DNA from: Ophelia neglecta
Taxonomy: Eukaryota
NCBI GenBank assembly: GCA_965285935.1
Contig: OZ260666.1
Span: forward strand, 14,632,001-14,696,000
Reading direction: 5' to 3'
DNA length: 64,000 nucleotides
Shown here piece after piece: positions 4,401 to 61,300 of this stretch; within the stretch, counting starts at the first letter, position 1, and each line of letters opens with the position of its first letter. The notes below the pieces were generated by a model, which was not told the DNA's origin, made no database searches, and was given only the letters and a program-made list of their open reading frames with translations. A program made the position numbers and the translations under genes.

Positions 4401-7400
4401 CTAATCGCCGTTTTCGTACCATTTATAGGTCATTCGAGGTCGGTCGTGTTTCGGCTGGGAAGTGGATGTGACCATACATCTCATCTTGAAACCTTCCTGC
4501 TCGATTCGTGCTTGAACTGGTTCTCCTGTACAATCCAAAATATTCTAATTGTGTACAATGTTTTCAAAATCAGTTAATAGACTTACAATTGTATAGATAT
4601 AGTGATGAACACTACAAGGTTTCTCAGTTGTCTAAATGCTATGTATAGACGACACTAAGGTATCGATCGCCAAATTATGTTCTAATGCTTAACGAATGAA
4701 AACATCATTGCATGACAATGTCTGCTAAAAAGTAAGACTACCTACCCCATACAGAAACAGTACCGTTTGTTACCACTTGTTCCGACTGTTTACATGTGTA
4801 CACTCCTGCGTCCTGTAAGGTGACGTTTATCAAAGTAAAACCAAATAGGTCAGCACTGCGTTCAACGAACCCCTCAAAGACTTTCTGTGTAACATTGACT
4901 GAATGTTGATAAGCCGTTTTATGTATTTTATATTTGGACAAGTGGAACATTTTCAAATTAAAATTGTCTTCGCATTTCAAAGGCCGAGCAGTGTCTATAT
5001 CTAGAAAGCTCCAGCGAAGCGTGGCGTTTCCTGTTGTATAACTGCAGTTTAAGCGTCCGTCTGAAAGCGGTGGTAATAATGAGACTACATACATTTGCGA
5101 CTATGTGTTTTTTTTCTGGAAGTGAGCGTAATATATATAATAAATTTATAATTATTTAGAAACAATTGTACCCACAAGTTGGCACCGGTTATGATATACA
5201 CAAAGGCGTTTAATAGTTAACATTGCTTTTTTTGTTCAAATGTATATTTATATACCTCCAGATTGGGTGGTCCCAGCCAAATCCGGTGGGCCCTGCGTGA
5301 AATGTTCAGCCGACAAAGTCGTTTCCATTGCTTGACCTACAAAATTTTATAAGCTATACTGATACATTGCACTCGTGCTTTTCAAAATGACGTCACCTGT
5401 AGCAAAACTTTATTTTGCGACTTAGATCGGCTGTGTAAATTTGAGCGACTAGTTGATGGTTGTCGCATTGACTAGCTCGTTTTAAATGTTAATATTACAA
5501 AGCTCTAAGTTTTTTTCGCGACATGGTGCCACTATGAAAAAAAAACTCGATGGCTCAATCTTGGTGCCTATATACTAACAGAGTGGATACCTGGAATATA
5601 AACAATTTTTAGTTAGCAAGGCTAATCTTTATGTCGCTCCGACTATAACGAGCTTTACTGAGGCACTGGTCGTAGTACAAAATGGTGAATTTGTCCACCT
5701 ATGTATGTAATGATTACAGATGAATCTATTCCCAATTCACTAATGAAAAAATGGCTTTTACTTGGCTTACTCTCTGTAACGGAGCCCGTTTCAGTGAATT
5801 TTTAACTTAAAGATTGTGAGTGGATACCCGACAGACACAGCTAAACATTAAACAATTCTAGTCCATTAAATTGACCACAAATCACCAGATACCTACAGCA
5901 TCAGGCAACAAACATAAGAATAATAATTTAAGATTGATATAACATGTGATGAGTAGTATTCAAACCATTTTCCATGACGCGAGCTATAACACTAAACAGT
6001 GGGTCAGTAGTAAAGTAGAGCAGCGATAAAATATGATCAAGGGGATCCTAAGATGAACAAAGCCGTTTCATTGTGGTGAGATTATGGATAAATCTTTTAT
6101 CTCTAAAACACATGACCAGAGCAGAAGGAAGTCCCGACATACTAAATTGTGAGTGGGTTTCATATCTCGTTAATATTGTAACCGAACATTATCAGTATGA
6201 ATCAGGTTCTCATGGCGCCATGTCATATGATGAGAGTAGGTTGCCTAAAGACACTGGCTTCTTTTGCTGTCTGGTTGCTGAAATAATGGCAATAAGACCG
6301 TACTACACCAGTCTGAAAGACAGTCATCGATTGTACGTTGACTAATCCATTGAGTTTTCAAATCTTAAGAAATGGTCCACGATCTGCAATTAACTCTGTT
6401 ATTTACCATATTTTTTGAACTTTTTCTGATGATTTCACTGTGATAGCTTCGGAAAAAGGATGATATATGGGCAAAATTTGCATTAGGATCAGTGGTTTTG
6501 ATGCAAAATGGGACAATCGTTATGCATACAGTTGTCAGAATAAGAAAATATATGACACAGTATAGAGCAATACAAAGTAAACATGGTGGATTATATGAAC
6601 ACGGATGGTATGAATACTAAACCAGGTTAACGAGAGATATGGCCCCGTACAGCATTAGAAATTGCAACACTAAATGTACGCTATCTCCTTCTATTTACAC
6701 GACCTAAATACGACAGGCCTGTCGGTTGACACGTGTTATTAAGCAGGATATACAACAACAGTGTATTTATTAAGTGGATTACCAGCTGTTCATGCTGGTG
6801 AGTGGGAGATTAGAGATACTTCAATATACTCCGCGCTTCATAGTTTATATTGGGATCAAATTAAGCGGACAAATCTAGGGCAATATATTTACTTTAAAAG
6901 AATTTCAGCACATATATTATGCACACGACAATTGCATATTTTGGACTTGACATAAATGGCAAAATGTGCCGCAAAACACCTAAACTGATAAAGAGATGGC
7001 ATTGGCAAGACGCACAATGATAATGTGCCTAGTGTACTTACTTTTCGAAAGAACATTTTCACGCAGCGTAAAGAGTATCACTCCGATGAATACCAGTCCA
7101 GCAAGCGTTGACGTGATGATGAACCCAAAGGTTTTCCCCCTTATCTGACATCCTGGCCATCTTCGCATTCTGTACTCTTCCGATTCTCTTGATGGCTCGC
7201 CTGCCTCATAATCTGTACAAGGTTGGGTAGCAATCTCCAAAATGTTCAGGGGTATGGTCTCCGTGCTCATATCCTTACCCTCGATTGTGGGCAAATTGTG
7301 TTCATCACGCGATGTCCTGGACTCTTTGATCACTGTCGCTGAGCGATCAGAGTTTGGTTTAGACCGTGTTAAATGCGGATGTTCCTGCTCTTCTGAATGA

Positions 7401-10280: not shown

Positions 10281-13200
10281 ATGATGGCTCGCATGCATTT
10301 AACCTATGCGTTGGTGCACTTGCACCTGCTTGTTACATTGATCAAAGGTTAGTTAATTTCCATAGTTTCGACTTAGTTACCACATATGTCCTGCACCTCA
10401 GCTTGTTGAGCTTCTTTTCTTCCTCGTCGCTTAACATTGATCAAAGGTTAGTTAATTTCCATAGTTTCGACTTAGTTACCAAATATGTCCTGCACCTCAG
10501 CTTGTTGAGCTTCTTTTCTTCCTCGTCGAAAACAATTTTTTCTGCAGCTAAGTAGTAAAGGATTAGGTAAATTATTAGGATTCAAAAGACCAACTGCGCT
10601 CCTTTCGTTGCAGATATGTTCACTTATGAATGTTCATTGTATGACTCATTTTTGTCGATTGGTGTAGCACAACTTGAAGATGGGCTTCCTATGATATATG
10701 TTTGTGACCTATTTTGTGGGTGTAATCCCCGAGGTACTAATAAAAGAAATGTACGCCTTCCCATCTCGAAATATTGACACAAGGGTTCCGCCTGGCCTTC
10801 TCTTTCGCGGCCATAATATATTTTTGACGAAAATCGATATTCTGCATAACCCTTTGATTCTTCATGCCAATATAAAAAAATAGGGTCATTTTATGTCTCT
10901 GTATAAGGTCTAGTTCAAAAGTTATGTGTTTAACTGATATCGCTATGTCTGCGGAGTGTCCACTCCCTTTGTTTCAAACAACTTTTGTACCTAATAATAC
11001 TTCACCTGTGGACTTATACTCAATTCTAAGTTTAGGTTTTAATGAATTTGTATTATATTGAAGCCGGGACACAAATCTCACGCACCATCCATGTTTGCGA
11101 AGGCGACACAATGAAGGTCAGCTTTGATTACCCGCATGGAAGGATGGGGGAAGCTACCTCGGTGCATGTAGAGCAGATAAAACCTATAAGCAGATACATT
11201 ATATATCAAGATTGGAATGAAAAGCCAACACCTGATGATGAGAGGGCGTGGATAGTTTGGAGAAAGACAAGCACTGGTGAACAAATCGAGGTAGGAATAA
11301 ACCACATAACTCTGTCTGATGAGGGGAGTTACGTTATTGATGTTTACTCGGATGGCTATGTGGAAACATATATTTTCTCAGTAAAGGTTTTGAACAACTC
11401 TGGTGAGTAGTTTTTTAATCTAGTTTCTGCTTTTATCTAGAATAAAATATAATAATTAATAACATCTCTCCCCACTTTCCCATATTTATATACATATATA
11501 AATACCATTCTACATCCATTTGGATGAATATTTTAATAAATATTTTTTCAATATTATTTTGTCAGTTAAATCAAATTCCAATTTTGTTGCACACTTTATC
11601 ACACTCAGTCTGCCCTGACCCTAAGAACTTGAGGCATCCGACAATCTCCTACAGACAGAAACCATCCTCTATAATACGTTTATACAACAAAACGTTGGAG
11701 CTCCGTGAACCAAGCAATGTTACACTGTTAGTGGACATACCTGCAGGGCATCCTCCTGTAATATGTACAATAGCCACAGATAAGTCTCAACATACTTGCA
11801 ATGGAAAGGTCAACATGACTTTCCTGTGTGAGGCTGAGCTCTTCTTGATATCGTCGGAACAGGAAATAAGAATAACCTTACATTTTATTGCTTACCGACC
11901 AATGACTACTAAGTTAGTTGCATTCGTCCTGGGTAAGGTTAATATTTGCATTAATAAATTTCTATATAAGATTATAAGGATTGATGGTACATTTTTACAT
12001 AGATAACGTGATAGACAAACGTGCCGCTTTAAACGACAAAGACTGGGGTGGAACTAATAACATAACACCATTGAAGATGCTACATGAAATCATATATTGT
12101 AATTAACAGAACATGATCTTCTGGAAGGCACGGAAATCAGCAAAATAAAAAATGAACATGATAAACCATCACCAGCAGTATATACTGCACGGGAGACCAA
12201 GGCAGCTCAAATGACCATTGATAGCGTTCTTGTGCTTGGGGGTTTTGTTTGCTTGTTCCTTGTCATCGCCCTTACGGCAGGAGCTCTGGTGGCACACCAT
12301 AGATGGAGAAAAGAGAGAGAACAAACCAGTGTGGATCGATTCGAACCTCCACGTACCGCGGCACAGGAAGAGGTACACCCCTGTCTCACCTTTCATACGA
12401 CATTCAAATGATACTTCTACTGTTCTTAGGAACATTGTAGTATTAATTCAACACCTTAGTATTAGTTGATAAATCATTTGCAATTCACTTCCACGATTGA
12501 ATTCATCGCCAAAAAAGCATCCTATGAACTATTTGATAGTGTTGTCCAAATAGTTTTTTTATTAAGGTTTAGTTTAGTAATGAATCATCAAAATCCATAT
12601 TTCTGTGTTGAAACATGCATAAGCATACATTCAATTCAGCCTGTCGTATCTCAGACAACGTTTTACCTTGTTTTCTTTTCACCACATGTTTACCTTCTGT
12701 ATTTGGTTAGATCGAAGAACGCCAGAATCTAGTCACTAATGACATGGACAAGCCAATCGCCTCAGCAGGTGATTGTTCCGTTTCTCAAATCATGGGTTCT
12801 GTAGACTTTAATACGGTACGAATCAGACTCCACAAGTTTCTGTTTATTCATTCTTCTACCATTAAAATAGTCTTCACGCCTGCTTTTATCATGAAATCTT
12901 AAAACTTGGTAATTATAATTTGTTCTCCTATTTCCGTCTTCTTCATGTCATAGATCTTGCCAAATGAAGGATTTTCTCCTCTACACATCGCAGCTATGGC
13001 CGGAACTGTTGATGAAGTAAAGCGCCACTGTAGGGATGGTGCTGACCTAAGTGAGCTTGACCCAATGAGTCGGACTGCACTGGCTGCAGCTGCTCGCAAT
13101 GGACATATATCTATTGTGCAATTTCTCATTGAGAAAGGCGCTGATGTCAATCACCCGGGCCCAGATGGTTTTCCCCCGGTAGCCAGCGCGGCAATTAAAG

Positions 13201-13928
13201 GTCAGACAGATGTAATCACTGTGCTATGTGAAAATGGCGCTGATCTCCGAATCATGGATAAAACTGGAGAAACTGCATTACACTACCCCTCCATTAAAGG
13301 AAATGTCAAGCTTATCAGCTTACTTTTGAGCAGAGGAGCTGATTTGCAAATATTGAATAAGCATGGACAAACACCACTGGGTTCTGCCTCAGAAGAGGGT
13401 CAGTTGTTAGCTGTAAAGTATCTCATTGATAAAGGTGCCGATATCAACAGGCCAGGCTGCAGTGGCAAACCCCCATTACACTGTGCCGCCAGGAACGGGC
13501 ATATAGCAGTCATACACTATCTTTTAGATAACGGCTGTGATATACACGCTTTAGATGACCTAAGTCAAGCCCCGCTTGGAGCCGCAGCTGGCAAAGGTTT
13601 AGTCGAAATAATGCGAAGTCTCATTGGTAAAGGAGCAAGTGTAAACCACCCTGGAATGTCTGGTCAACCTCCATTACACTGCGCAGCCGCGAAAGGACAA
13701 CTAGGGGCGATACACCTTCTCATAGAAAAAGGCGCAGATGTCCACATGAAAAATAAATTTGGCCAAACGGCAGTGGAAGTTGCTGCCAGTAAAGGTTTTA
13801 TTCCATGCGTGGAAGGTCTCATTGACAAAGGGGCTGCTGTTCCCCAGCCGGAAGTTGCTAGCCAGACAGACATACTAACCACTGTTGTGTTATTGGGGGA
13901 TTGTACTGCTGTTTGGAAGAATCATTAG
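10281..13928 (+). CDS. Gene A1: type I TM receptor, signal peptide - 2 Ig-like domains - TM - 9 ankyrin repeats, ~690 aa
   Basis: Exons 10281..10347 (MMARMHLTYALVHLHLLVTLIK), 11064..11402 (V-like, ITLSDEGSY), 11609..11932, 12110..12372 (TM VLVLGGFVCLFLVIALTAGALV), 12711..12815 (phase 0/0, possibly a cassette exon) and 12954..13928 (9 ANK). Phases are 1,1,1,0,0; 2073 nt; no internal stop. Confidence 0.85.
10335..10528. repeat. Local tandem duplication (~95-bp unit, 99-bp period) including the signal-peptide exon donor
   Basis: ACATTGATCAAAGGTTAGTT...TCCTCGTCG occurs at 10335-10429 and 10434-10528. There is a single unit at ~49918-50010 in copy 2. Confidence 0.9.
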
Positions 13929-16900: not shown

Positions 16901-18628
16901 AACATCTACCAGACTAATACATACCACCCAAGAGTCAAGTAGCTTGCTCGGTATCATCCCGATTCATTAGCTACAGACAGTGAATGAAAAACGTTGCATC
17001 AAGGTGTAATTTATTTTATTTTATTAAGGCTTGAAAAATACAAAAGTATCAGTGGGAAAATACTGAGAATATGAAGCGCTAATTATATCAGTCAAGTAAA
17101 ATACATAATATACAGTTACAGTCATACAAGCAAACAGACATGTACCGGTAGATAATTGCAAAAATACGCAAAAAGTGATAAACAAAAACGCTGAAATGAA
17201 TGAATTGAATTACTCAAGATAACAATAATAATCTGTTTAATTTATTTGATAACTGTTCGAATGGTCTCGAAAAATCATGTGGCAACGCCAAGTCAAGCTA
17301 CACCATCCCACTGTTGCTTAATCGCATTTTTTACAAGCGAGGGCGAAAGATTGTAAGAACATGTAAAATATATGAAGTCGTACAGTAATCATTGAATATA
17401 AGATACGTGTCAATTCTACGAGCTTTACTTGGACTACATGAACGCAGATAATCAGATGATATATGTCATGCAAAATAGTAAATACTTTAAAAGAAAGAAA
17501 AATGGAATGGATGAAATAAGATAGGATTATAAGCATATATACTCCATGCATTCATTCATTAATATCAATAACCAGCTAAAATAAGCACGTGGTGCTATTA
17601 CCTTAGCAACGCAGCATAAGCCAGTTTAAACTAAAAGGGAACTACATTTTTTAGTCTGAATATGCAGTGATTCAAAATTTCGGATTCATTTGTTTGTAAA
17701 ATTAAATTAAAACAACTATCATGTATTAATTTTTTTTGATTATAAAAAGTTAAAATTAAATAAGCATGTATACTCTACGTTAATATTGATACAATAATAC
17801 CGATAATTAACTAAAATATGCATAGAAATTGAATGTTCTGAAATTACTTTTACTAGTTACCTATCAAAATAGACCGCTTACGCTTCAACGGTAATTACAA
17901 ATTCATTGGTTGGTAATTGTTATGACGCATTTTGGGTTGTAATGTCGAAAGTCGTTAGCAACTATGTATGAACTAAAACGCGAATATAAAATAGGGAGTG
18001 GATCATTTGCGAAATTTAGTAAATTCAAAGCTAAAAGGTTCTTGAGCATAACTTAACTAACACATTACGTAACATAGGCGGAGAACAGTTGTATATATGT
18101 ATATAAGTAAAAACTTCAAATACCCATACTTAAGCATAGCGCGCACATAATGACATACTTAGCCTTCCTAGTACTTCCTACAGACTGGGATGAAATCCAG
18201 TTGCAATTCGAAAGGTATTGCAAGCAGGAAAGTAGCGACAATGTAATGCTGTAATATTACCGAGTCGTTGTATAATATACGGAAGCCAAAGATATAAGCT
18301 AAGGAGGCAACTTAGTATCGGATACTTTGAACATGAATTGCAGATTAACCATATCCTAACCTTACGCTCAGTGCATGCCACAGCGGCAAAAAAACCGCAG
18401 CTTGCACATTGCCAAATACAGCTATATCACCATACCAAGGTAAATTACCTTACTCCACTTCCACCAAGCTTCTAAGCACAGTTTCATGCATGCTTTGGTA
18501 ATTGTGTTTTGACTCAGCAAACTAAGTTGTTAAATTGATGTGCTTTACGTGGAATTTAAGCCAATGCACAGGCGAAACAGTCTTTTATCTTTCGAGAAGT
18601 GATACCCGGTCGAAAGTTCAACCACTGT

Positions 18629-21600
18629 TTAAGCCAAGGTAAATATGGTTTCATTTTTTTCGGTTATTGAAGAATTCGTAGATCCTTCATCGCTGACATC
18701 GGGTGAACCTAAGTTAAATATTTGTAAACAATGCTAAAAGTTCAAAAATATATTACATTGCTTTCCTAATATAGTACTTATCTTTGAAATATACATTTTT
18801 CGTGGATTTATGTGCCAAAATATCTAATGTATCTAATGAAGAATCGTGTGCCTCTTTAACCAGTTGGTCGTCCGGGTTATATCCGGTCTGATCAATATAC
18901 ACTAAACAATAATGTTTTGACAATAATATATGGATATACTTACAAATTATTTCAGGCAAAGCTGCTGTGCTGTTTGACACGTCACTCCTGACTCCAAACT
19001 CGTCTGCCAGAGACACCAGACACATCAGCGACTCGGTACAATCAATCACAGTGTCATCAATGTGTACGCTTGTTCCGTTTGTCTCTTGTGACTGCTCTCG
19101 GGTCTTGGAACCATTGGTGATGATCATCAGCGTAAGTTGTAATGGACTAGGCAGCTCCGAAACGCTACAATTAATCTTGTACGTTGTAGTTGGGTACACT
19201 GCTTGTACTTCAATAACATGTATATCAATCTTCGGCTTAGGAATATCTAAAATAAAAAGGCAATAATTATTGTTTCACTAAAAATGATAGGTTATTGTCA
19301 TACAAGGACAACAACTTGATTACAACAGAGTATGGCAGACTGATTCTGTATAGTTTATCATTGTTGAATGATCGGGCTGAAAAAGAATTGTAGTTATACC
19401 TACATGGTATTTCATTTGCTCAGAAAAAACACCTACTAATGAATACGTAACATGGGTAATCAGTATTTACCTTCTGGGGACATAAAGAATGCTTTACTTT
19501 GCCCAGACGAATACGGGGAATCAACTTCTGTGCCTTGACAGGAATAATGGTTATTGCCAGCTTCTTGCCAATATTCAAGTGGCGCGGGCAAATAGTACTA
19601 CTTACTCTCAGCCTCCACTTTCACATTGTTTCGGTACCACGAATACTGCATCCGAGGTCGCGCATTTTGTGGCTCGGATGTTGATATAACGTCACATCTC
19701 ATCTTGAAGCCTACTTGTGTTACCTTGGCTCGCTGAGGTTTCCCTAAAAAAAACAGAAAATATATGGCGGTAAATAAAATTAATCTTGTAGTCGGAAACC
19801 ACCTGCTTTAGGTTTAGTTTGAATATACAATGGATCAATGAAACAACTTTGTTTAGCAATTTTCGTTCATAAAATACAGCAATAAGCCAATTTGACAATT
19901 TACGTTTTAATATGGTAACGGATAACCAACTTTTATCAGTCACTAGCATCACAAATAATAATGAAATAATGTTTATAATAATAATAATATATCAATTTGT
20001 CACAGTATCAATTGATATATCCTACCCCATATGAACACGGTGCCGAGGGTCATAATCTGTCCTGCCTGTTTACATGCGTACTCCCCTGCGTCTTCCATGG
20101 TGACATTGAGCAAGGTGAAGCCAAAAATGGCGGCATCTTTATCAATAAACAATCTAAATATCTTCTTCGTTTCATTTCCGGGGTCGTCAATTGCAGAATT
20201 GTGCGTCGAGAAGTGAAGCAGATGGAACATTGTATGGTTAATATTGTCCTCACATTTCAACGGACGATTGGCGTCCGCGTCGAGGAAATCCCACATCAGG
20301 GTGGCATTGTCCCCGATCTTACTGCGACTGAAGTGGCTTTCTTAAAACAAACGAGTACGAAAATATCAGTATATTCTTGGAAAAACTTCAAAACTCGCAT
20401 TAGGCCAGCATGGAAAGACTAAACATTTGCTAATTATTTAAGCGAGCAAACCTAACAGGAAGTTGTTCATACTAAAAAGAAGTAGAGGACATTCGCATGA
20501 CCCTCTGACCGTCATAAATCACGACGATGATATTTTCAATTACCGAGCTTTAACCACATTAAAGGTCTTTTCCTCCAATTGGTATAGAAACTTACCCTTG
20601 ACCTCCACCAAGTAGGTAAAGTTACGCTCGTCTTGGCTGCACATGTAGCTCCCCGCATCTTGTTTTGTAACGTTCAACAAAACCATTGTAAACGAATCAT
20701 TGATTGGAACAACACTGTACCTCTCATCCATATCTACGGTGCCATAGTCAACGCGTGATTGGGAAACGTTGAAGATATTTTCGCCGATGTTATTGAAACA
20801 CACGCTGGTACGGCTTGGATCAGTAGAATCAATTTCCCAATGGATTGAAGCATTTCTGCCAACATATGCCACTAATATGTCAAAATCTGGTTTTTCTGAA
20901 AGGTCAATAAGATTAAATAATCAGAGTTTCGATATACATTTTAATCAAGCCATGCGCTACTGCATTTTACAATAAGATCAAATGTGCGCTTAAGGAGTAG
21001 CATAATAATCGACGTGAAACGACATGTAATATGCTCTACACATTTGTTTAAATTCCAGAAGCACGCTTTATATGACATTTCTTTTGAAAACATTATGTGT
21101 TTATATGTTCATTATAACATTAGGGGTAATTTCATTCGAGCTATTAAATTATTCAAGTTATGCTGCTATGACAAGAATTTCATTTGTTTGATAATTTGTT
21201 GCCAAGAAAGATGGCGGCCGGCGGATCTACAGCTTTGGCACTATTATCGGCTTTACACTAGAAATGATGATAAATTGAAAATGGGAAACGGCGAGATCCG
21301 TCCACATTGTGTGCACATGGGGACTTGTGTCAACTAGACCATCGTACATTTCACTCGATAAAACATTGTTGTTGTTAGAAGGCGAACTTATTATTTGAAA
21401 TTACTGTCAGGATGCCCACAGAAAAAAAGCTGACTAAATTAACAATATTAATAAACTGTCGGTTCGCTGAATTCTTCAGCCGTGAATATTTACACAAACA
21501 CGATAGTAATTATAATTAATGTGGTTTAATTCTGCTACTTTATTAAACTTATCAGCCAGACTTTCAACTTGACTCCGTTAGATCAGTTTGCTCCTCCCCC

Positions 21601-24600
21601 ACGTGCCGTTATTGCATTGTCTGAGGCACCCAATTTTTAATTTTTAAAGGATAGAAATTGCAATCTGTTAAGGAGCTATTATGTACTATTTATATCTTTC
21701 TATTTAATCTGCTAGCATCACAATTAATGCCCAGCGAGGTGAACACAGCGAATCGCCCGAGCCAATTGAGCGCATACGTGTAATAAGGGTAACGGCATGA
21801 AATGCATGCACTTTAAAAGTTAGAATTGTTCAAGTATTAAAGTGTTTTTTAACCTTACCTGTTACTTGACTGGAGAAGATTGTACTGTAACTGGCTGTTG
21901 TTAAAGGCTTTGCTGTGGTCATCGGATGTTTCCCTTTGGAATGAAACACACGTATTAGTGGCCGGAAGCACATCACGTTTAACCATTATAGTAGAGTAGT
22001 AAAGTATTGGACACTACTCTATTATTTGCTATTACAAAGACACCTAACATCTTTTATATTTCCAAGCATCTTGACTTGTTCCTTAGATTGCAGCAGCAAA
22101 CTTTAGCTTGCCAATTTTTGAGACATCGTTTTCAATATTTTGCCGACTAACTTCAGCTGCTCTTATGGACATTCTTTCTATGTCGCTTAAAATTGAAAAA
22201 AAAAAACATTGAGCGAAATGCGAAAGAGGGCTACGAACGGACGGGCCCTTTTATTCTAAACTCAATTCCTAACAAAAAGACGCATGAAAAATAATGGGTT
22301 TGAACGCCAACATTTCTCAGCCATGTTTCTCTGTTGATGTGCAAGGGCAATTTTCTGATAATGGTCGGACTAAATTTAACTTCGACTATTTATAAGCCCA
22401 AATAGAAATAATTGCATGAAACAATTATACACGGAATTATACTACTAAATAAAATAATCTCTGGTAATCTCTCTGACAACCAAAAAGGGAATAAAGTCAA
22501 TTTGATATACCGTATAAAGCAAAATAGCCATTAGGAGCATGCTGCAAATGGCAAATAGATAAAGTAAACATGTAACGTATTTTTAAACTTACAACTTAAC
22601 ACCCGAAATTCACGTAGTATCCAGGTCAATACTACCACAACTACCACCCCGACGAGCGCTGCCGTAGCGATGTATCTCAGTAATGTCCCGTTGACCCGAC
22701 AACCTCTCTTTCCACCTATGATTAGCTTTTCGTATTGGTTTGATGTCCCTTGCGCGTTTAATTCAATGCCTTCAATGCGATCGATAGGGGCTTCTTCCAA
22801 AGTTTCCAAACACACGATGTCAACGTCCATGTCTGCATCCTCGATACAGGAATAGATGTGCTCGTCCGCCGAGCTACGGCTGCCGCCATTTGTTGCCCGT
22901 ATGTTAGATTTCTCTCCACGACGGGTGGTCTTGGCTGAGAGGGGCTTTTGTGGTATTTCTGTATATGGATTTCTGTTTGCCCCGCTTTTCCTATGAGGCT
23001 TACCGGGAGATGGTTCAATTCTATTCCCGCGATCGGGAGCATGTAAATGGGGTTTAGGTGCATGCTCAGAATCTGTTGGAGCCAAATCAGCTATCTGGTG
23101 TACTAATGATTCCCTCATATCCATTCGATCAGAGACATGAGAGGGTGAACTCTTTTGAACGGAATTTTTATGGCCATTATTTTTGGATTTTCCCTGGCTT
23201 CCTAAGTGAATTTTGACATCTCTCGGGGATGAATCCCTGGATTTGAAATATTCTTCCTTTTTACCTAAATTTGAACAGTGTGGTTTGGGAGGAACGGCTG
23301 ATTCGATGGAAGCCGAATGTGTAGAAATTGCCCAGGGGCGAGTGTCCACGGTTGTAACGTCTCTTTCCGATCCAACTGCGGTACTTTCAAATATCTGGCT
23401 AGTCTTTTTGGGTTCCTTCAGGTCCTGTAATTCGCGGTATGTAGTGGGTGTTTCTAGGATTGATTCCTTTGGGGTAGCCGTTACTTTCCTTTCTGCAATG
23501 GGGGAATTTTCTTGACGCTGACTTGGTACAAAAGTCATCTGAGAGCGAGGCACCTTTGGGAAGTGGAAATAATCCGATCTGTCATCGAGGGCGTCATCAT
23601 TGGCTTTAATGTTACCTGTAGCCCACTCGTCCGTCGTCAGACTGGCCGTGTCGGAGGACCCAGTTGAAGAACCATCCTTCACAGTAGCTATTTCATTGTT
23701 ATGGCTGTATTGGTCCTTTTCAAGCTTTACCCCGGTGTCCTCATGATGGTGATCATTGATTGGAGGAGTATCTCTGGCTTTGAGATAATTCTTGTCCAAA
23801 TCTGAAGACTTTGGCCTGGGACAGCCGGTTGATTCGGGTGGTTTGATGGCGACATGTGCATTAGTTGAATGTTCACCATTGTCATTCACCAAAATCCTCT
23901 CACTACGAGGCACGTCGTTGAAATGAAAATAATCCTTTCGAGTGTCCAAAGCCGTACGTCCTTCTCCAGCGCTGCCAGAACTTTTCAGAACCTTTCTTGT
24001 TGGAATAGAACCCTTGAGACCTTGACCTTTTCCACTGATCGTGTGTTTTTCTATGATGGGTTCATTTTTTTTAGCACCACTGCCTGCTTGTTTATTCCTA
24101 ATTTCAATATTAGGCTTTTCTGTACCTGGCGCTTGTACCAGAGTCATCTGACTGCGGGGTACATGAGGGAAATGGAAATAATCAGACCTTTCATCTGGGA
24201 AGCCATCCTCGGGTCCAATGTTAGCCGCAGCGCCGCGGTCCGTCGTCAAGCTGCCCGTGTCTGAAGACCCAGTTGAGGAGCTATTGTCCACATCGGCTAT
24301 TACCAGGTTAGGGACGCTATATTCATAATTCGCCCCGGTGTTCTGTTGATGGTTAGAATTGCATCGTGGAGCTTCAAGGGATTTCCGAAGTTCGTCATGG
24401 TTGCCTATATCTGACGCCTGTCGCTCTGGAGAATTGGTTAAACCAGGAGTTGAGAGGACGGCAGGAGTCGGAGTTTCATCATTGACCATAATCATCTCGC
24501 TTCGAGGTACTTCCTTGAAGTGAAAATAGTCCTTACGAGTGTCCTCCATAGTTGCAAGTCCTTGGTTTGATATGTCCTCCGTTTCATCACCGATAGCCGC

Positions 24601-24837
24601 CATCCAGTCGTCTGTCGTCAGGCTAGCTGAGTCCGAGGACCCTGTGGTGGAGCCATCGACCCTGTCAATTTCATCCCCAGCGTTGCTATATCCTGTATTA
24701 ATTCGTAGATGATCCTGGCATTGTACGCTAGGCTCGGCTCCTGTTTGTTTTGGACTGGTTTCAAGGTCGTCGGTTTGGTGATTAGGACTCGAGTGGTCAC
24801 CTTTGCATGGCGACGCAGACTTTTCCAACGCATCCAT
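18629..24837 (-). CDS. Gene D1: putative type II TM protein with a ~720-aa repetitive tail and 4 Ig domains; in-frame TAG in Ig3 (truncated or null allele)
   Basis: Exons complement(24837..22593, 21933..21859, 20895..20596, 20340..20026, 19743..19471, 19246..18944, 18708..18629), all phase 1, 3591 nt. TM YIATAALVGVVVVVVLTWIL. Many N-x-S/T sequons C-terminal to the TM. TAG at 19600-19598. The terminal exon is the least certain. Confidence 0.78.
23530..24660 (-). repeat. Coding repeats in the D tail: 4x DxRxDYFHFxxVPRS and 3x STGSSDxxSLTTD
   Basis: Read directly from the translation. Higher-order period of about 200 aa (~600 nt). Confidence 0.9.
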
Positions 24838-32076: not shown

Positions 32077-32577
32077 AAACCTTCTCATTTCATCAAGGTT
32101 TTTGCACGCAACTTGACCATTTGATCTCCATTATTTATCAACACTTGTTTTGTTTACAGTAAGACGCCCTGGCCCTGTGTCTGTCTGTGAGGGTGATGAA
32201 GCCAAATTCCAGGTGGATTTCCATCCAGGAATGATGGACACATTAAAGTCGGTACACGTTGAACAGGTCTCGCCGAAGGCAAGATACATCCTATATAAGA
32301 ACCGGAACGAAAAAACACACTTGGATGAGCCAAGGGCCTGGCTTGCCTGGAAAAAGATAAGCAATGGAGATCAACTTGAATTCCTCATTCGAAACATAAC
32401 TGTATTGGACGATGGTATCTATGAAATATATGTATATTGGGGAACAAAAGTGATGGAAATAAGTGCCATAGTGAATGTGTTTGGTTAGTCCTCGAGAACA
32501 ATTACAAAACACTTTATTGAGTTACAATAATTAATCAATCTAACGATCCATCTTTATATATATATATATATATCATC

Positions 32578-32703
32578 AATTCTTTTGTCACTTTCAACGA
32601 ATTGTATAATTGGGGTAATTATATATATATATATATATATAATTACATAATTACCCCAATAATTTCCCCAATTATACCATTAGTTGAAAGTGACAAAAGA
32701 ATT
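32578..32703. repeat. AT-centred inverted repeat (hairpin or cruciform)
   Basis: AATTCTTTTGTCACTTTCAAC ... GTTGAAAGTGACAAAAGAATT are exact reverse complements. Inner arms TATAATTGGGG / CCCCAATTATA surround an (AT)n run. Confidence 0.85.
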
Positions 32704-34763
32704 AATGAAACCAAAGAATCATAATGTAATACATTGAGTCACACTCACACTATATTTGTTTTCCTCATGTTTTAAAATCTGGCATGGAATCGGTGTAAAT
32801 TCGAAGTTTAGTCAATTTATTAAAGAATGTTAAGGCGCTATATGTTATCGCACAGATAGTATTCACCTATTGCTGGATATGGATTTTGTACTGATACTAT
32901 TAGAAATGCTATAACAATGCTTGGAATGGATCTAACATGTATTAGACACTAGGCGAGACCGGCGTACCAGCAATGAGAAGGGAATACATGTATCTCAGTA
33001 CGTTTTGAGAAGAGGGAAAATTACGATGATTGAGACAACCATAATTTCAGTGATAAATGGGTCAAACTACCTTTTCTTCTAGAAAGATTATATTTTAGTT
33101 TATATATATTAAATTGTTTGGCTAACCTTAACTACCATATGCGAATTTGCTCAACGTCACATGTTAGTAACCGGATTGTGGTTAAAATGAAGATATTTTA
33201 CATCGTTGGGGTTGGTTGAGGATGGATATTGAATGTCTAATAATGCCCGGCACCATTGGTTCCACTTTTCTATTATTTCATAATATTAAACATAAAAAGG
33301 CATCTTCGATCTGTGCCTACTGCTTGTATAGGCGAATGATATAATTATCTTCTGGACATGGTTTGCGACACAATAGACCTAAAATAGGACATATTAAGTA
33401 TATACCATGCATGTCAATGAAATGTCTCCATTGAATACACCGAATTCATGTTATGTAATCAATTCGTTATCCATGTTTTGTAGGCTGCCCTGACAGAGAA
33501 TGGCTGATGTACCCTCCAATCTCCTATGGATAAAACACATCCGCATTCACCAGTGTATACAATGACGGCCTGGAAGTCAAACCAGGTAATGTGATCCTCC
33601 GGGTGGATATACCGGCAGCCAATCCGCCAGTCTTCTGCACCGTGTCCACCGTGTCAACAGCACAGCCTCACTGCATGGGACTGCCAGACATAACTTGTAC
33701 CTTGTCCAATGGCAAGGCACATTATCACTGCAGAGGAACAACACATATGACATATATGTGTGAAGTGGATCTTCAGTTTGATGTTGCCAGGGAGGACCAG
33801 ACTATAAACGTGAGCCTGTCATTTATCGCATATGGAGCAAAGACAACCCAACTACGTGTCCACGTCAAAGGTTAGTTAGGTCGTATAAGAATCGTGTGGC
33901 GTTTTATAGCCCTAGGCTGAAAGAATAACTATGAAAAGGAAACTCTCTGACATTTGTATTTTGCACTATTAATAGTCAAACTATTGGAAGTGTGTATGCC
34001 ATATTCATATTGCAACTTGTATTCACGTTACTTAGCATACCTAGTGTTCTTTTCATACAGGCACATTCATAAGATCATTTAATGCTTTTCGTTCATCAGA
34101 GGAAATTATAGAAGAAGTGACGACAACCATCGTATCTGGACAAGAGCATCCCAAAAGCACAAAATCAACGCCGGCAACTGTAATTACCATTGTTGTTTTA
34201 GTTACACTGGCAATAATTGGTGTTTTAGCCGCGGTGTCATACTATCAGCTAAGACAACAAAAAGAGGAAAACACCAACCGAACAGATGTAGAGGTAACAA
34301 CATACATTATGATGGCTTGCTTTTGATCAAATTTAAAAGTCCTAATAAACAAAGAGTTCGACTAATGTTTCATTTCAAATATGATATAATAAATAAAGGA
34401 AAGAAATAAAGTAAAAAGAAACGGGAGTTGATACCCGGCAGAGAAAGCAAAATTATTAATTCATTAAATCGGTAGAAAATCAGCGGGAACCGACTGCAAT
34501 TACAAATCAATCTAGGGCCTACACTTTGAGTACTGCCATATTTGAACTTTTTATAAGTGTATTTTAAGACAGGAAATGACCTACCTGGTGCCATGTGCCG
34601 ATAAACGCTAAAAATATAAATCCTACCAATAGAAACACTCACATTATACGAACAAAATAGTTGCATTATTTCGACATGGGCATTATGATGCCTACGGCAA
34701 ACGTTTTCAACAGATAATGATTCGTTTTAAGGACCACAATAATGTACTTTTGTTCTCTCATAG

Positions 34764-35404
34764 GGTAAAGCAACCGAGCCACTTGTTCCTTCTGTGCAAA
34801 GTACAATTAGGACCCCAACGGAATTTTTTTTTCTTCTCTGCACATTGCGGCTTTTAATGGTGATTTGGCTGAGAAATGAGAAATGGCCTTGATTTACAAC
34901 TGTTAGACAAAACGGGTCGGACGCCATTGGTTGCTTATGCTCGAGAAGGTTATATGAGTATTGTCCGGTATCTCATTGAAAAGGGTGCTGATGTCAATTA
35001 CTCAGGTATTGGAGGATACCCATCCTTATCTGGGGAAGCCATTAAGGGCCACTTGGATGTAATAGAAATATTATGCGAAAATGGCGCTGATCTACAAACA
35101 CCAAATAGTAATGGAGAAACAGCTTTACACTACCCTGCCATGAAAGGAGATATAAAGACAATGCGGGTTCTTTTGAATGGAAGAAATGCTGATATTCAAA
35201 TTCTGAATGAACGCGTACAAACGCCGCTTGTTACTTCTTAAGTTGCTGTCACACTTTAGCGTATAGAGCTAACGTGTGTCTGGCGTATTGAAAAATTGGG
35301 TGTACGTTCGCGTAAGTTGCCATTCGTTCGTGACACGTTTGACATAAGGTCTTTGGCAGCGGTTAAATCGCTCAGTGACCACGGTGCCAATGTGGACCGG
35401 CCAG
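34764..35404 (+). pseudogene. Decayed duplicate of the gene C ankyrin exon (cassette 1)
   Basis: The acceptor and ~130 bp of upstream intron are homologous to those before 36943. Begins GKATEPLVPSV, frameshifts in a T run and stops at TGA 34890-34892. ANK homology continues in ORF 34876-35241, is interrupted by an ~105-bp insert, and resumes at 35348-35404. Confidence 0.85.
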
Positions 35405-36103
35405 TATTTGCTATATCGCCTTCAGTCTGGTATGACGGACGATACTGCGTATAAAACTTGTTACTGCGTAATATGCGCTGGTGTCACACGTGCTGCTGCT
35501 GTGAAATGTTATCTTCAAGTTAACACAACATTCAGACAGCTAACTTGCTATAATGGTTAGATTTTGTTGGTTATTTGGAACCGGACACAACAATAATGTT
35601 TTATGCCTTAGCCCCCAGGGGCAAGGTAGCTGTTCAGTGGGCAGGCTTTACTTGGCACCCGCCTTCCCTTGCGCTGATTAACAAATACAATGTAATGCTC
35701 CTTCTAATGCAGTGATTAACTGTAGTCTCCAACCATCCCCACTCCTTGGACTTGATTGGTTGGTTGTTTGTGGTTTTTCGTGACTTTCAACACTTATATG
35801 GCCATATCGCCACGTTGCCTACTTGAGGCAGTGGGCTCATTGCCCTCTTCGTGGATTTATTTCAGTAAATACCAGACCAAAGATGTTGCTAGAATGATGC
35901 GTTCCACTTTAAGAATTAAGCGACATTCGATTCCAAACTGTTAGAATTACAAAACAATCAAATGCCTTAACACTTTGCATTGTCACATTTTAAGCTTTCT
36001 TTTATCAGCTTCATGCCAATGAAAATAATAATGTTGTACGAAGCATATTCTCATTCTTTTCGTTTCAAGTCGCACACTAATATTTTCTTACGTTTTCTCC
36101 TAG

Positions 36104-36610
36104 ACAGAGCAAAACATCCCTCTTACTCATCCAAAAGAACCTATTCTGCCGAAGCCGGAGGAGGATTTTTTTCATCTGAAAACTGGGGCTCCGAACGCTG
36201 ATTTAGATGAGGTAAAGCTTTTGTGTCAAAACGGTTTTGTAAACAAAAATTAGAGAAATCGGTTGAACTATAGTCGGTGCCTATGAGCGCACAGGTTATA
36301 TTTCATTGAAAAGGACGGTGATGTCAATTACGCAGTTCCCGGAGGTTACGCCGCCTTATCTGGGGCTGTTTTCAAAGGACACTTGGATTATAGATCTATT
36401 GTGTAAACATCGCGCCGAACTACAAACAGCTTGTAAAGATGGATAAACCATTTTATGCTAACCTGCAGTGAACAGAGCCGTAGAGGCAGTTCGGGTTCTT
36501 TTGAATGAAGGCGCTGATAATTTAACTCTAAATACAAACGCTGCTTGCCATGATTTTCGAAAAGATTATGTATTGACTGTTAAATGGCCCATTACCAAAG
36601 GTGCCAATTG
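36104..36610 (+). pseudogene. Older decayed duplicate of the ankyrin exon (cassette 2)
   Basis: A phase-0 acceptor gives TEQNIPLTHPKEPILPKPEEDFFHLKTGAPNADLDEVKLLCQNG...*, which aligns to the start of the intact exon. Downstream DNA resembles ANK repeats 2-5 with indels. Confidence 0.7.
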
Positions 36611-37908
36611 TAGACATGCCATACTAGAAAGGCATAATCAGAATCAGAAATATCTCTATTTTGGCCATTCACGAATATATACATACAATAAACGATCACA
36701 ATAAGCTTTACAGACATGAAATGAACAGGGTGACCCTCACTAGGGCTGCTGTGCTGCCGCTAGCGTGGGGGCCACCTTCTATATAATAGAAAGTCATTAT
36801 CCAACCAAAGGAAACACTCATATTATACTAACAAAGTGGCTGCATTATTTCGAAATGAGCATGATAATGACTACTGTAAACGTTTCAAACAGATAATGTT
36901 TCGTTTCGAGCACCATAATAATGTATTTTTCTTCGCTCATAGGGTGCAGCAACCGAGCCACTTGTTCCTTCTGTGGACAAAACTATTAGGACCCCAGCGC
37001 AAGATTTTTCTCCTCTTCACATTGCGGCTTTGAACAATGATTTGAATGAGGTAAAGCGTCTGTGTAAAAATGGCGCTGAACTAGAAGTATTAGACAAAAT
37101 GGGTCGTACGCCACTCGGTGCCTCTGCTCGCGAAGGTCATACGTGTATTGTCCGGTATCTAATTGAGGAAGGTGCTGATGTCAATTACTCAGGATCCGGA
37201 GGTTACCCAGCCTTATCTGGGGCGGCCATCAAGGGCCACTTGGATATAATAGAACTATTGTGCGAAAATGGCGCTGAGCTTCACACAACAGATAGTAATG
37301 GAGAAACAGCTTTACACTACCCAGCCATGAAAGGAGACATAGAGACAATGCGGGTGCTGTTGAGTAGAAATGCTGATATTCAAATTCTAAATGAACACGG
37401 ACAAACGCCGCTTGCTATTGCTTCAGAAAAAGGTCATTTGCCAGCTGTTAAATGGCTAATTCGCCAAGGTGCCAATGTAGACCGGCCAGGCAGTGAAGGC
37501 AAGCCCCCGTTACACTGCGCGGCTGGGAAAGGACGCACGGAAGTTATAGAATGTCTCTTGGATCACGACGCAAACATACATACAGTAAATAAATTCGGCC
37601 AATCACCGCTTGGATCTGCTGCTGAGAAAGAGCAAATAGAGACAATGATAAACCTCATCCAGAGAGGCGCCAGTGTTAACCATCCGGAAGAAAACGGCCA
37701 ACCTCCTCTCCACTGTGCAGTATATAAGGAGGAACAGCTGAAGTCACTGCGGCTTCTCTTGGACAAAGGTGCAAACGAGGTCATGAGAAATAAAAACGGT
37801 CTTACTCCAGTTGATGTCGCCCGTAAAAATGGACATTTGCAAGCAGTTGAATGGTTAATCGACAAAGGTGCTTCTGAAAAACAGAGCAAGGCAAGCACTC
37901 AGTGTTAA

Positions 37909-38834
37909 AGCAAAGAGGAATCGAATGAGTCCAGCCCAGCGCTAGTATCCATTTCTTTGAATGAAGCAGCCTCAGCCGGAAATTTAGATGAATTGAAGCG
38001 TCTAATCAACCATGTGCTTATCCACTTCCACTTGATGAAATATGTCGGACCACACTTAATGATTCTGCTCGCAATGGACATACCAGTATTGTCAAGTTCC
38101 TCATCGAGAAGGGCGCTGATGTCAATTACATAGGATCTGATGGATTTCCTCCGTTACCTGGAGCTGCTATAAAAGGGCAACTGGATGTAATAAAATTACT
38201 TTGTAGAAATAGAGCGAGTCTACGAAACATTGACAAAAGTGGCCAAACTCCATTACATTATCCAGCACTTAAAGGAAACATAGAGGCAATGCAGACTTTT
38301 CTGGACGAAGGTGCTGACAAAGAAATACTAAATAAACAGAGAGAAACGCCACTTGGCGTCGCATCTGGTAAAGGTCAACTATTGTTTGTAAAAGATTTGG
38401 TTGAGAAGGGCGCAGATGTCAATTTCCCAGGATGTAAAGGCAAACCGTCCTTAAACTGCGCAGCCAAAAATGGTCATTTAGATGTTATACGGTATCTTTT
38501 AGATAAAGGTGGTAATATAAAGGAGGTAAATGAATTTGGTCAAACTCCACTGGGTTCTGCTGCAGGAAAAGGACAAATAGGAGCAATGCGAGTTTTTCTT
38601 GATAAAGGCGCCGACCTAAATCATCCTGGAAGTTCTGGTCAACCCCCACTTCACTGCGCAGCAAAGGAAGGGCAGCTAGACGCTATACATCTGCTTCTGG
38701 ACAAAGGCGCCGATGTGACCATAAAAAATAAATTGGGACTTACTTCAGTTGAAGTAGCTGCAAATGAAGGTCACTCAGAATGCGTTGAATGTGTCGTTGA
38801 CAAAGGAAGTACCATTCCTCACGCTGCCAACTAG
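37909..38834 (+). pseudogene. Second 9-repeat ankyrin array directly after the gene C stop codon
   Basis: In frame after TAA 37906-37908 it reads SKEESNESSPALVSISLNEAASAGNLDELKRLINH. A 1-nt deletion follows near 38014, then a frame open from 37992 to 38834 holds the remaining repeats. Confidence 0.8.
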
Positions 38835-58316: not shown

Positions 58317-61300
58317 TTAAGCCAACGTGAATATGGTTTCATTTTTTTCGGTTATTGAAGAATTTGTAAATCCTTCATCGCTGACATCGGGTGAACCTAA
58401 GTAAAATATTTGTAAACAATGCTAAAAGTTAAAAAATTTATTACATTGCTTTCCTAATATAGTACTTATCTTTGAAATATATATTTTTCGTGGATTTATG
58501 TGCCAAAATATCTAATGTATCTAATGAAGAATCGTGTGCCTCTTTAACCAGTTGGTCGTCTGGTTTATATCCGGTCTGATCAATATACACTAAACAATAA
58601 TGTTTTGACAATAATATATGGATATACTTACAAATTATTTCAGGCAAAGCTGCTGTGCTGTTTGACACGTCACTCCTGACTCCAAATTCGTCTGCCAGAG
58701 ACACCAGACACATCAGCGACTCGGTACAATCAATCACAGTGTCATCTATTTGTACGCTTGTTCCGTTTGTCTCTTGTGACTGCTCTCGGGTCTTGGAACC
58801 ATTGGTGATGATCATCAGCGTAAGTTGTAATGGACTAGGCAGCTCCGAAACGCTACAATTAATCTTGTACGTTGTAGTTGGGTACACTGCTTGTACTTCA
58901 ATAACATGTATATCAATCTTCGGCTTAGGAATATCTAAAATAAAAAGGCAATAATTATTGTTTCACTAAAAATGATAGGTCATTGTCATACAAGGACAAC
59001 AACTTGATTACAACAGAGTATGGCAGACTGATTCTGTATAGTTTATCATTGTTGAATGATCGGGCTGAAAACGAATTGTAGTTATACCTACATGGTATTT
59101 CATTTGCTCAGAAAAAACACCTACTAATGAATACGTAACATGGGTAATCAGTATTTACCTTCTGGGGACATAAAGAATGCTTTACTTTGCCCAGACGAAT
59201 ACGGGGAATCAACTTCTGTGCCTTGACAGGAATAATGGGCACTGCTAGCTCTATGCCAATATTCAAGTGGTGCGGGCAAATAGTACTTGCTCCTCTCAGC
59301 CTCCACTTTCACATTGTTTCGGTACCACGAATACTGCATCCGAGGTCGCGCATTTTGTGGCTCGGATGTTGATATAACGTCACATCTCATCTTGAAGCCT
59401 ACTTGTGTTACCTTGGCTCGCTGAGGTTTCCCTAAAAAAAACAGAAAATATATGGCGGTAAATAAAATTAATCTTGTAGTCGGAAACCACCTGCTTTAGG
59501 TTTAGTTTGAATATACAATGGATCAATGAAACAACTTTGTTTAGCAATTTTCGTTCATAAAATACAGCAATAAGCCAATTTGACAATTTACGTTTTAATA
59601 TGGTAACGGATAACCAACTTTTATCAGTCACTAGCATCACAAATAATAATGAAATAATGTTTATAATAATAATAATATATCAATTTGTCACAGTATCAAT
59701 TGATATATCCTACCCCATATGAACACGGTGCCGAGGGTCATAATCTGTCCTGCCTGTTTACATGCGTACTCCCCTGCGTCTTCCATGGTGACATTAAGCA
59801 AGGTGAAGCCAAAAATGGCGGCATCTTTATCAATAAACAATCTAAATATCTTCTTCGTTTCATTTCCGGGGTCGTCAATTGCAGAATTGTGCGTCGAGAA
59901 GTGAAGCAGATGGAACATTGTATGGTTAATATTGTCCTCACATTTCAACGGACGATTGGCGTCCGCGTCGAGGAAATCCCACATCAGGGTGGCATTGTCC
60001 CCGATCTTACTGCGACTGAAGTGGCTTTCTTAAAACAAACGAGTACGAAAATATCAGTATATTCTTGGAAAAACTTCAAAACTCGCATTAGGCCAGCATG
60101 GAAAGACTAAACATTTGCTAATTATTTAAGCGAGCAAACCTAACAGGAAGTTGTTCATACTAAAAAGAAGTAGAGGACATTCGCATGACCCTCTGACCGT
60201 CATAAATCACGACGATGATATTTTAAATTACCGAGCTTTAACCACATTAAAGGTCTTTTCCTCCAATTGGTATAGAAACTTACCCTTGACCTCCACCAAG
60301 TAGGTAAAGTTACGCTCGTCTTGGCTGCACATGTAGCTCCCCGCATCTTGTTTTGTAACGTTCAACAAAACCATTGTAAACGAATCATTGATTGGAACAA
60401 CACTGTACCTCTCATCCATATCTACGGTGCCATAGTCAACGCGTGATTGGGAAACGTTGAAGATATTTTCGCCGATGTTATTGAAACACACGCTGGTATG
60501 GCTTGGATCAGTAGAATCAATTTCCCAATGGATTGAAGCATTTCTGCCAACATATGCCACTAATATGTCAAAATCTGGTTTTTCTGAAAGGTCAATAAGA
60601 TTAAATAATCAGAGTTTCGATATACATTTTAATCAAGCCATGCGCTACTGCATTTTACTGTTCAATAAGATCAAATGTGCGCTTAAGGAGTAGCATAATA
60701 ATCGACGTGAAACGACATGTAATATGCTCTACACATTTGTTTAAATTCCAGAAGCACGCTTTATATGACATTTCTTTTGAAAACATTATGTGTTTATATG
60801 TTCATTATAACATTAGGGGTAATTTCATTCGAGCTATTAAATTATTCAAGTTATGCTGCTATGACAAGAATTTCATTTGTTTGATAATTTGTTGCCAAGA
60901 AAGATGGCGGCCGGCGGATCTACAGCTTTGGCACTATTATCGGCTTTACACTAGAAATGATGATAAATTGAAAATGGGAAACGGCGAGATCCGTCCACAT
61001 TGTGTGCACATGGGGACTTGTGTCAACTAGACCATCGTACATTTCACTCGATAAAACATTGTTGTTGTTAGAAGGCGAACTTATTATTTGAAATTACTGT
61101 CAGGATGCCCACAGAAAAAAAGCTGACTAAATTAACAATATTAATAAACTGTCGGTTCGCTGAATTCTTCAGCCGTGAATATTTACACAAACACGATAGT
61201 AATTATAATTAATGTGGTTTAATTCTGCTACTTTATTAAACTTATCAGCCAGACTTTCAACTTCACTCCGTTAGATCAGTTTGCTCCTCCCCCACGTTCC

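Follow-up and report, generated by a model that had tools for sequence, protein, structure and literature searches.

What does a dense patch of substitutions mean when it falls in one copy of a tandemly duplicated receptor gene and creates both a stop codon and a consensus splice donor? In the 64,000-nucleotide stretch of the Ophelia neglecta genome that we analysed (the window, in which positions are counted below), two copies of a predicted gene, D1 and D2, differ in this way within their third immunoglobulin-like domain (Ig3). The first-pass annotation had read the patch as one hypervariable tract, left by gene conversion or by diversifying selection at a ligand-contact surface, with a possible isoform in which splicing bypasses the stop.

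The gene D array and its predicted product

Within the window a ~39-40-kb unit occurs twice in direct orientation, and a genome search found the Ig3 exon of gene D in 12 tandem copies within 14.28-14.97 Mb of one contig, with 91-100% identity among them. The possibility that D1 and D2 are falsely duplicated haplotypes is ruled out by the 12 copies of graded identity and by the mosaic unit.

The gene model, predicted from splice signals, comprises seven coding exons and six phase-1 introns and encodes 1196 amino acids (Table 1); a further upstream exon may exist. Since the protein has one hydrophobic segment (residues 723-741), no signal peptide or N-terminal hydrophobic segment, and 15 glycosylation sequons after the helix vs 3 before it, these features point to a type II protein with a predicted N-terminal cytoplasmic region of 722 residues and four C-terminal Ig-like domains. 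Gene D is in this sense a predicted invertebrate immunoglobulin-type surface receptor. In Ig3, the B-strand cysteine C16, the C-strand tryptophan W35 and the F-strand cysteine C68 that mark the immunoglobulin superfamily (IgSF) are unchanged in all 24 of the family domains aligned. Its structure model (pLDDT 78) is a C2/I-like beta-sandwich with 4w4o_C as best structural match (Z 9.5, rmsd 2.7, 85 aligned), and it resembles the C2-type domains of Fc receptors, CD22, CHIR and LILR in fold only, at 9-22% identity. Against Pfam, Ig3 reached Ig_2 at no better than E 0.011. The seven-strand sandwich of Ig4 had no match at E<=0.001, its weak ones being C1-set and one Fn3. The repeats of exon A have the form DYFHF-x-x-VPRS and could be a tyrosine-based docking motif; a related motif occurs in distant members.

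Table 1. Positions of the features discussed, in window coordinates
Feature	Position	Strand	Remark
D1 exon A, with four DYFHF repeats and four YxxL/I in the predicted cytoplasmic region, and the sole hydrophobic segment 723-741	22593..24837	minus	
D1 stalk exon (predicted)	21859..21933	minus	
D1 Ig1, V-set-like	20596..20895	minus	PF07686 E 8.6e-5, under curated cut-off
D1 Ig2, V-like	20026..20340	minus	
D1 Ig3 exon, C2/I-like fold	19471..19743	minus	
D1 Ig4 exon, seven-strand beta sandwich	18944..19246	minus	
D1 last coding exon, ending in TAA, without a second hydrophobic segment	18630..18708	minus	
Sub-patch (a), Ig3 segment of two types spanning codons 53-64 (helix, predicted EF loop)	19551..19583	minus	D1 is of GNN type, common to 6 other copies; 19565 is D1-private; structure model-based
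Sub-patch (b), cluster private to D1 (4 of 5 bases)	19600..19604	minus	Equally a 3-nt deletion, a 3-nt tandem duplication and 1 transition
Premature TAG, Ig3 codon 48, protein codon 1027 of 1196	19598..19600	minus	Natural donor follows after 127 nt; two introns lie downstream
Phase-1 GTAAGT, a new donor-like site	19600..19605	minus	U1 duplex -8.0 kcal/mol (natural Ig3 donor, -6.8), by a crude measure
D2 counterpart of sub-patch (a), RASSA type	59239..59271	minus	Likely incoming conversion tract, maximum bounds ~59201-59272
~500-bp tract in which c14553 is nearly identical to the D1/D2/c14287 clade	19343..19847	minus	Candidate older exchange
Gene C half-Ig3 exon, TAG at codon 41	4401..4525	minus	Natural comparator for the D1 truncation

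Outside the array, the genome search returned at least 150 more distant Ig3-like exons (150 of 150 scored candidates; 292 were seen) on many contigs, including C9, C1, C2, C5, C7, C8 and C12, and at the four distant loci inspected a long N-terminal exon is followed by V, Ig3 and Ig4 exons. Homologue searches with exon A and Ig3 gave no matches. An Ig3 profile, for which 10 of 150 matches were examined, picked up generic multi-Ig proteins as well as short unnamed relatives in contigs from ENA, Logan and NCBI. In the open literature searched, no type II Ig family of this kind was described, and the predicted family is apparently undescribed and without a named relative among the sequences searched.

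In the same ~39-kb unit, the plus strand of the window at 11036-13928 carries exons that encode Ig-like domains and a hydrophobic segment, together with an ankyrin-repeat ORF of 324 aa. This arrangement suggests an Ig-TM-ankyrin receptor that faces the predicted type II genes. Related pieces lie at 32117-38834, and there are several decayed ankyrin copies nearby.

The patch divides into two parts

The approximately 12 substitutions in 54 bp that had been reported are exactly 12 when D1 19551-19604 is aligned with D2 59239-59292, with zero indels, and the flanks are as nearly identical as described, the closest other D1/D2 differences being at 19384 and 20108. The premature TAG of D1 and the two translations (D1, ESK*YYLPAPLEYWQEAGNNH; D2, ERSKYYLPAPLEYWHRASSAH) were likewise reproduced. 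When the D1/D2 differences were placed at random, either 20 of them over 18900-21000 or 40 over 18400-21000, none of 200,000 placements gave such clustering.

Comparison with the other copies overturns the description of the patch as one event. Seven of the 12 changes fall at polymorphisms shared across the 12 copies (19551, 19552, 19554, 19558, 19563, 19564 and 19583), and five are private to D1 (19565, and 19600, 19601, 19602 and 19604). By this comparison of sequences, the patch is two unrelated events, sub-patch (a) at 19551-19583 and sub-patch (b) at 19600-19604. The case cautions that, when two copies are compared, a tract shared with other paralogs and a mutation private to one copy can be mistaken for a single hotspot. 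That all 12 changes entered D1 together, as one conversion tract or one selection episode, would account for their tight clustering and for the match of D1 to c14553 across most of 19551-19583, but c14553 and the 10 other assembled copies are ancestral at 19600-19604. A donor on an unassembled haplotype is possible, and we consider this single-event origin extremely unlikely.

A probable short conversion tract at 19551-19583

The gene-conversion proposal stands for 19551-19583 only, which groups with other paralogs than its flanks do, and falls for 19600-19604, where no paralog has the D1 bases. A search for a donor paralog likewise gave a near-donor for the D1 type, c14553, and none among the 11 other copies for the stop/donor bases. 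Two loop types segregate: seven copies, including D1, have GNN, and five (D2, c14287, c14515, c14893 and c14965) have R-x-S/N-S. The D1 type equals that of c14553 at 7 of 8 sites and the D2 type resembles that of the distant copies c14893 and c14515. Over the 33 bp of the segment, D1 differs from c14553 once and from D2 eight times, and D2 differs from c14893 twice and from c14553 seven times. In the flanks (19343-19550 and 19605-19847) D2 shows 15 and 22 differences from c14893 vs 1 and 0 from c14553. Because the flanks group D2 with c14553 and the tract groups it with c14893, the likely recipient of the tract is the D2 lineage, not D1. No exact donor for the D2 tract was found in the assembly, the best being c14893 with 2 mismatches in 33 bp.

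The base 19564C is present in D1 and c14553 alone, and 19512T in D1, D2 and c14287 alone, c14553 lacking it. Given these sharing patterns, the ancestor of the clade most simply had the D1 type. An older exchange of 500 bp with c14553 would then have been followed by 19512T, and later by transfer of the short tract into the ancestor of D2 and c14287. This three-step history is the simplest, and we hold it to be right with good confidence; the alternative would need at least one extra conversion. Conversion is general across the gene D array, with identity runs exceeding all 300 permutations in 16 of 66 copy pairs. Within 18400-19060, D1 also matches c14515 over ~18480-18720, a second mosaic tract in this copy.

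A D1-private cluster creates the stop and the donor consensus

The D1 pattern at 19600-19604 has one match in the whole genome and is present in 0 of the 11 other copies. The three elementary changes into which it can also be resolved all lie within ten bases. No direct or inverted template of at least 6 nt was found within 300 nt of the cluster, leaving a template switch or templated insertion unsupported, and private clusters of at least two changes within 3 nt occur in 8 of the 12 copies. The cluster is likely to represent one complex, error-prone mutation without a donor copy. Among the 648 replacements that alter at least four of the five bases, 217 create a stop, 17 create GTRAG and 3 create both. 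Because a phase-1 GTAAGT placed before the retained AG reads TAG, stop and donor are one coincidence and not two: the stop comes cheaply, and the donor is genuinely coincidental, at a chance of a few percent. Multinucleotide mutation can mimic selection, according to one preprint, when a single event introduces several adjacent and mostly nonsynonymous changes (bioRxiv 10.1101/165969). The D1 change differs from the cases described there in being nonsense and in forming a donor consensus.

The cluster could instead be an error of consensus calling or assembly, as its single occurrence in the assembly and the difficulty of a tandem array of near-identical ~40-kb units might suggest. However, long-read errors are not usually length-neutral changes of 4 of 5 bases outside homopolymers. 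Comparable private clusters occur in other copies (for example, c14332 at 24421-24424), and D1 has 11 further isolated private changes and so behaves as a distinct copy; we regard such an error as highly improbable. Contigs from three runs of one sample have only the ancestral bases at 19600-19604. They give no evidence either way because they also lack 19512T, which is carried by three assembly copies, and 19564C, carried by two; such contigs drop minority variants, and the sample possibly comes from another individual.

Strength and predicted consequences of the new donor-like site

The GTAAGT of D1 interrupts a codon after its first base, in the same phase as the Ig4 acceptor at 19246, as had been stated, and joining the two would by computation remove 135 nt and leave an open product of 1151 aa. 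The agreement of phase is a weak argument because all six gene D introns are phase 1, including the one that starts at the natural Ig3 donor (19470). Donor strength was scored against the 5' end of the host genome's own U1. The new site pairs with seven consecutive bases, and its pairing energy lies within the range of the six real donors (-5.4 to -11.5 kcal/mol, by a crude measure). In U1 pairing it is tied second among 169 exonic GT sites and is stronger than half of the six real donors. Two or three further exonic GT sites, in exon A and Ig1, score like it. The ancestral sequence (59290-59285, minus strand) has a weak phase-1 GCAAGT three bases from the new site, GC-type and donor-like, with a U1 duplex of -4.0.

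The suggestion that splicing at this site rescues D1 through a functional in-frame isoform without half of Ig3 draws on this pairing, stronger than that of the natural donor, and on the open reading frame. It has a precedent in ABCA7, for which one report gives cryptic-donor rescue of truncating alleles at ~10% of transcripts (PMC5563332). The likeness is that in-frame alternative splicing can bypass a truncating change; the difference is that the ABCA7 sites described there pre-existed and were shown by cDNA reads, whereas the D1 site was made by the same mutation and is known from DNA alone. Against rescue, the product would lose 45 residues (46-90) with strands E-G and the invariant Cys68, so that Cys16 would be left unpaired and the Ig3 core residues would not be kept. 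The GT sites of similar strength in exon A and Ig1 are presumably unused, and the donor is absent from the other 11 copies. By our estimate, some use of the new donor is plausible, somewhat short of an even chance. A functional product from it is much less plausible, and rescue of D1 by this route appears very unlikely.

Broken copies, gene C and the fate of D1

Five of the 12 gene D copies are disrupted before the end of Ig4, in four independent lineages: D1 by its TAG, c14609 by a stop in the helix, c14515 by frameshifts, and c14407 and c14768 by a frameshift and a 400-bp deletion that spans Ig3 into Ig4 at a CCATTA microhomology. Three more copies have frameshifts in the last exon. With five of twelve copies broken, D1 is probably one more casualty. 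No other disabling lesion was found in D1, whose branch is too short for power. In c14609 the intron that precedes Ig1 also contains an insertion of ~3.9 kb, and exon A has lost 165 nt in frame. The nearly identical broken copies c14407 and c14768 lie 361 kb apart and D2 and c14287 lie 404 kb apart, which may reflect either a recent large duplication or an uncollapsed haplotype; individual near-identical copies such as c14407/c14768 may be collapsed or duplicated in the assembly.

Gene C, a relative and neighbour of gene D with 10 copies (8293-4401 in the window, minus strand, and 9 others on contig C9), would by prediction encode a type II receptor composed of a single V domain and half an Ig3. 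Its Ig3 stop is at codon 41 in 7 of 8 copies examined (one also has a stop at codon 34) and at codon 36 in the eighth, in which the rest of Ig3 and an Ig4 remnant have decayed, making two independent Ig3 stops in this lineage. The D1 stop lies close to both. Exon A of gene C has no stops or frameshifts in 8 of 8 copies despite 153 segregating changes, of which ~7 would be nonsense by chance, and the V exon is open in the same eight; the N/S ratio of exon A is 0.90. Since the gene C copies examined stay open in exon A although they end within Ig3, a short-ectodomain receptor may, by analogy, be viable.

D1 could on this precedent be a working receptor cut after Ig1, Ig2 and half of Ig3, converging on the gene C form, and a C-terminal stop in a type II protein spares the tail, the anchor and the V domains. 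In animals with junction-dependent nonsense-mediated decay, a stop with introns downstream signals decay, and the two introns beyond the D1 stop would be such a signal. The lesion is also private to one copy, and gene C is itself a predicted gene with the exon A ratio given above. We consider a functional short D1 unlikely. Should truncation within Ig3 prove functional, new receptor forms would have arisen by this route repeatedly.

Variability and selection in the EF loop

Diversifying selection, the other cause first proposed for the patch, is suggested for the loop within 19551-19583 and not for codons 46-48. The other 11 copies are identical at those codons, so the stop/donor bases are not part of a hypervariable surface. 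In the Ig3 model, codons 59-64 connect a short helix to the strand bearing Cys68 and are predicted to form the EF loop, not a CDR-equivalent. Among the seven intact copies (the five broken ones being excluded), 19551-19568 is the most diverse of 6251 18-nt windows (pi 0.24). This was matched in 1 of 2000 column shuffles, which ignore conversion, and an intron window reaches pi 0.21. Loop changes among the intact copies are 10 nonsynonymous and 0 synonymous (p=0.015 vs other Ig codons, p=0.07 vs neutral), a post hoc comparison in which recombination breaks independence. The pN/pS of Ig3 is 1.40 vs 0.34 in Ig1, 0.25 in Ig2 and 0.53 in Ig4 (Fisher p=0.021); against neutrality neither the loop nor the Ig3 domain (p=0.31) has a significant excess, recombination again breaking independence. 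These values suggest, without proving, that selection has diversified the EF loop in the intact copies. Distant family members vary at this loop too and show an indel there, a pattern as compatible with low constraint as with selection. In KIR, the EF loop at the elbow between two domains is used for ligand contact.

Discussion

The locus is probably best explained by a loop moved by conversion, likely into the D2 lineage, and a separate D1-only mutation of five bases whose stop likely inactivates D1. The five-base cluster would have arisen in one step by slippage or error-prone repair, and D1 transcripts would decay or their product be non-functional. The donor would have arisen as a by-product, by accident, and its use would leave Ig3 misfolded; moderate diversifying selection would act on the EF loop in the copies that remain intact. 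Several observations pull against this explanation: the new donor is good by U1 pairing and few of the possible replacements produce one, D1 is otherwise without lesions, gene C is truncated at nearly the same place with exon A open, the D2 tract has no exact donor in the assembly, and the D1 bases are known from the assembly alone. As a whole, the picture looks like ordinary gene-family turnover, with known processes acting in a predicted receptor family, and it cleanly illustrates conversion alongside gene death among clustered receptor genes of an invertebrate.

A more ambitious reading is that the type II Ig family diversifies in two ways, by conversion that shuffles ligand-specifying EF loops and by repeated Ig3 cuts that make V-domain-only receptors (gene C twice, D1 and c14407/c14768), the D1 mutation supplying both truncated and splice-shortened isoforms. 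We think this combination unlikely. Under the favoured account of conversion and a separate inactivating mutation, the lasting value lies in the predicted type II Ig family itself, in which the EF loop marks where to seek ligand specificity.

Among known systems, the Alr genes of Hydractinia are described as clustered IgSF genes with one domain per exon, a V-set domain and further Ig-like domains (PMC9546547). The same account gives 12 pseudogenes in the cluster, many copies cut by nonsense or frameshift changes, and splicing that alters architecture (PMC9546547). The gene D array is likewise a cluster of domain-per-exon Ig receptors with many truncated copies. The architectures differ: Alr proteins as described there have a cytoplasmic tail after the transmembrane helix, several with ITAM or ITIM, whereas gene D would have an N-terminal cytoplasmic region and C-terminal Ig domains. 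With its helix starting at residue 723 and its sequons concentrated beyond it, gene D departs from the Alr order of signal peptide, Ig domains, helix and C-terminal tail. By the patterns of PMC9546547 it has 0 ITAM and 0 ITIM, with four single YxxL/I, and where Alr is described with an Fn3-like membrane-proximal domain, the Ig4 of gene D gives sub-threshold matches to C1-set and one Fn3. No sequence link was found between gene D and Alr. The COX1 of the gene D host, judged from the residues expected in it, translates best under mitochondrial table 5, a protostome-type code, which places the host outside the cnidarians.

Like KIR/LILR, Sp185/333 and plant R genes, as these are portrayed in one review-level account (PMC5103432), the gene D array combines tandem copies, mosaic conversion, a variable loop and pseudogenes. 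It differs in its predicted type II orientation and in having no homology to them beyond the fold. In Sp185/333 pseudogenes are reportedly almost absent (PMC5103432), whereas 5 of the 12 copies of the gene D array are broken.
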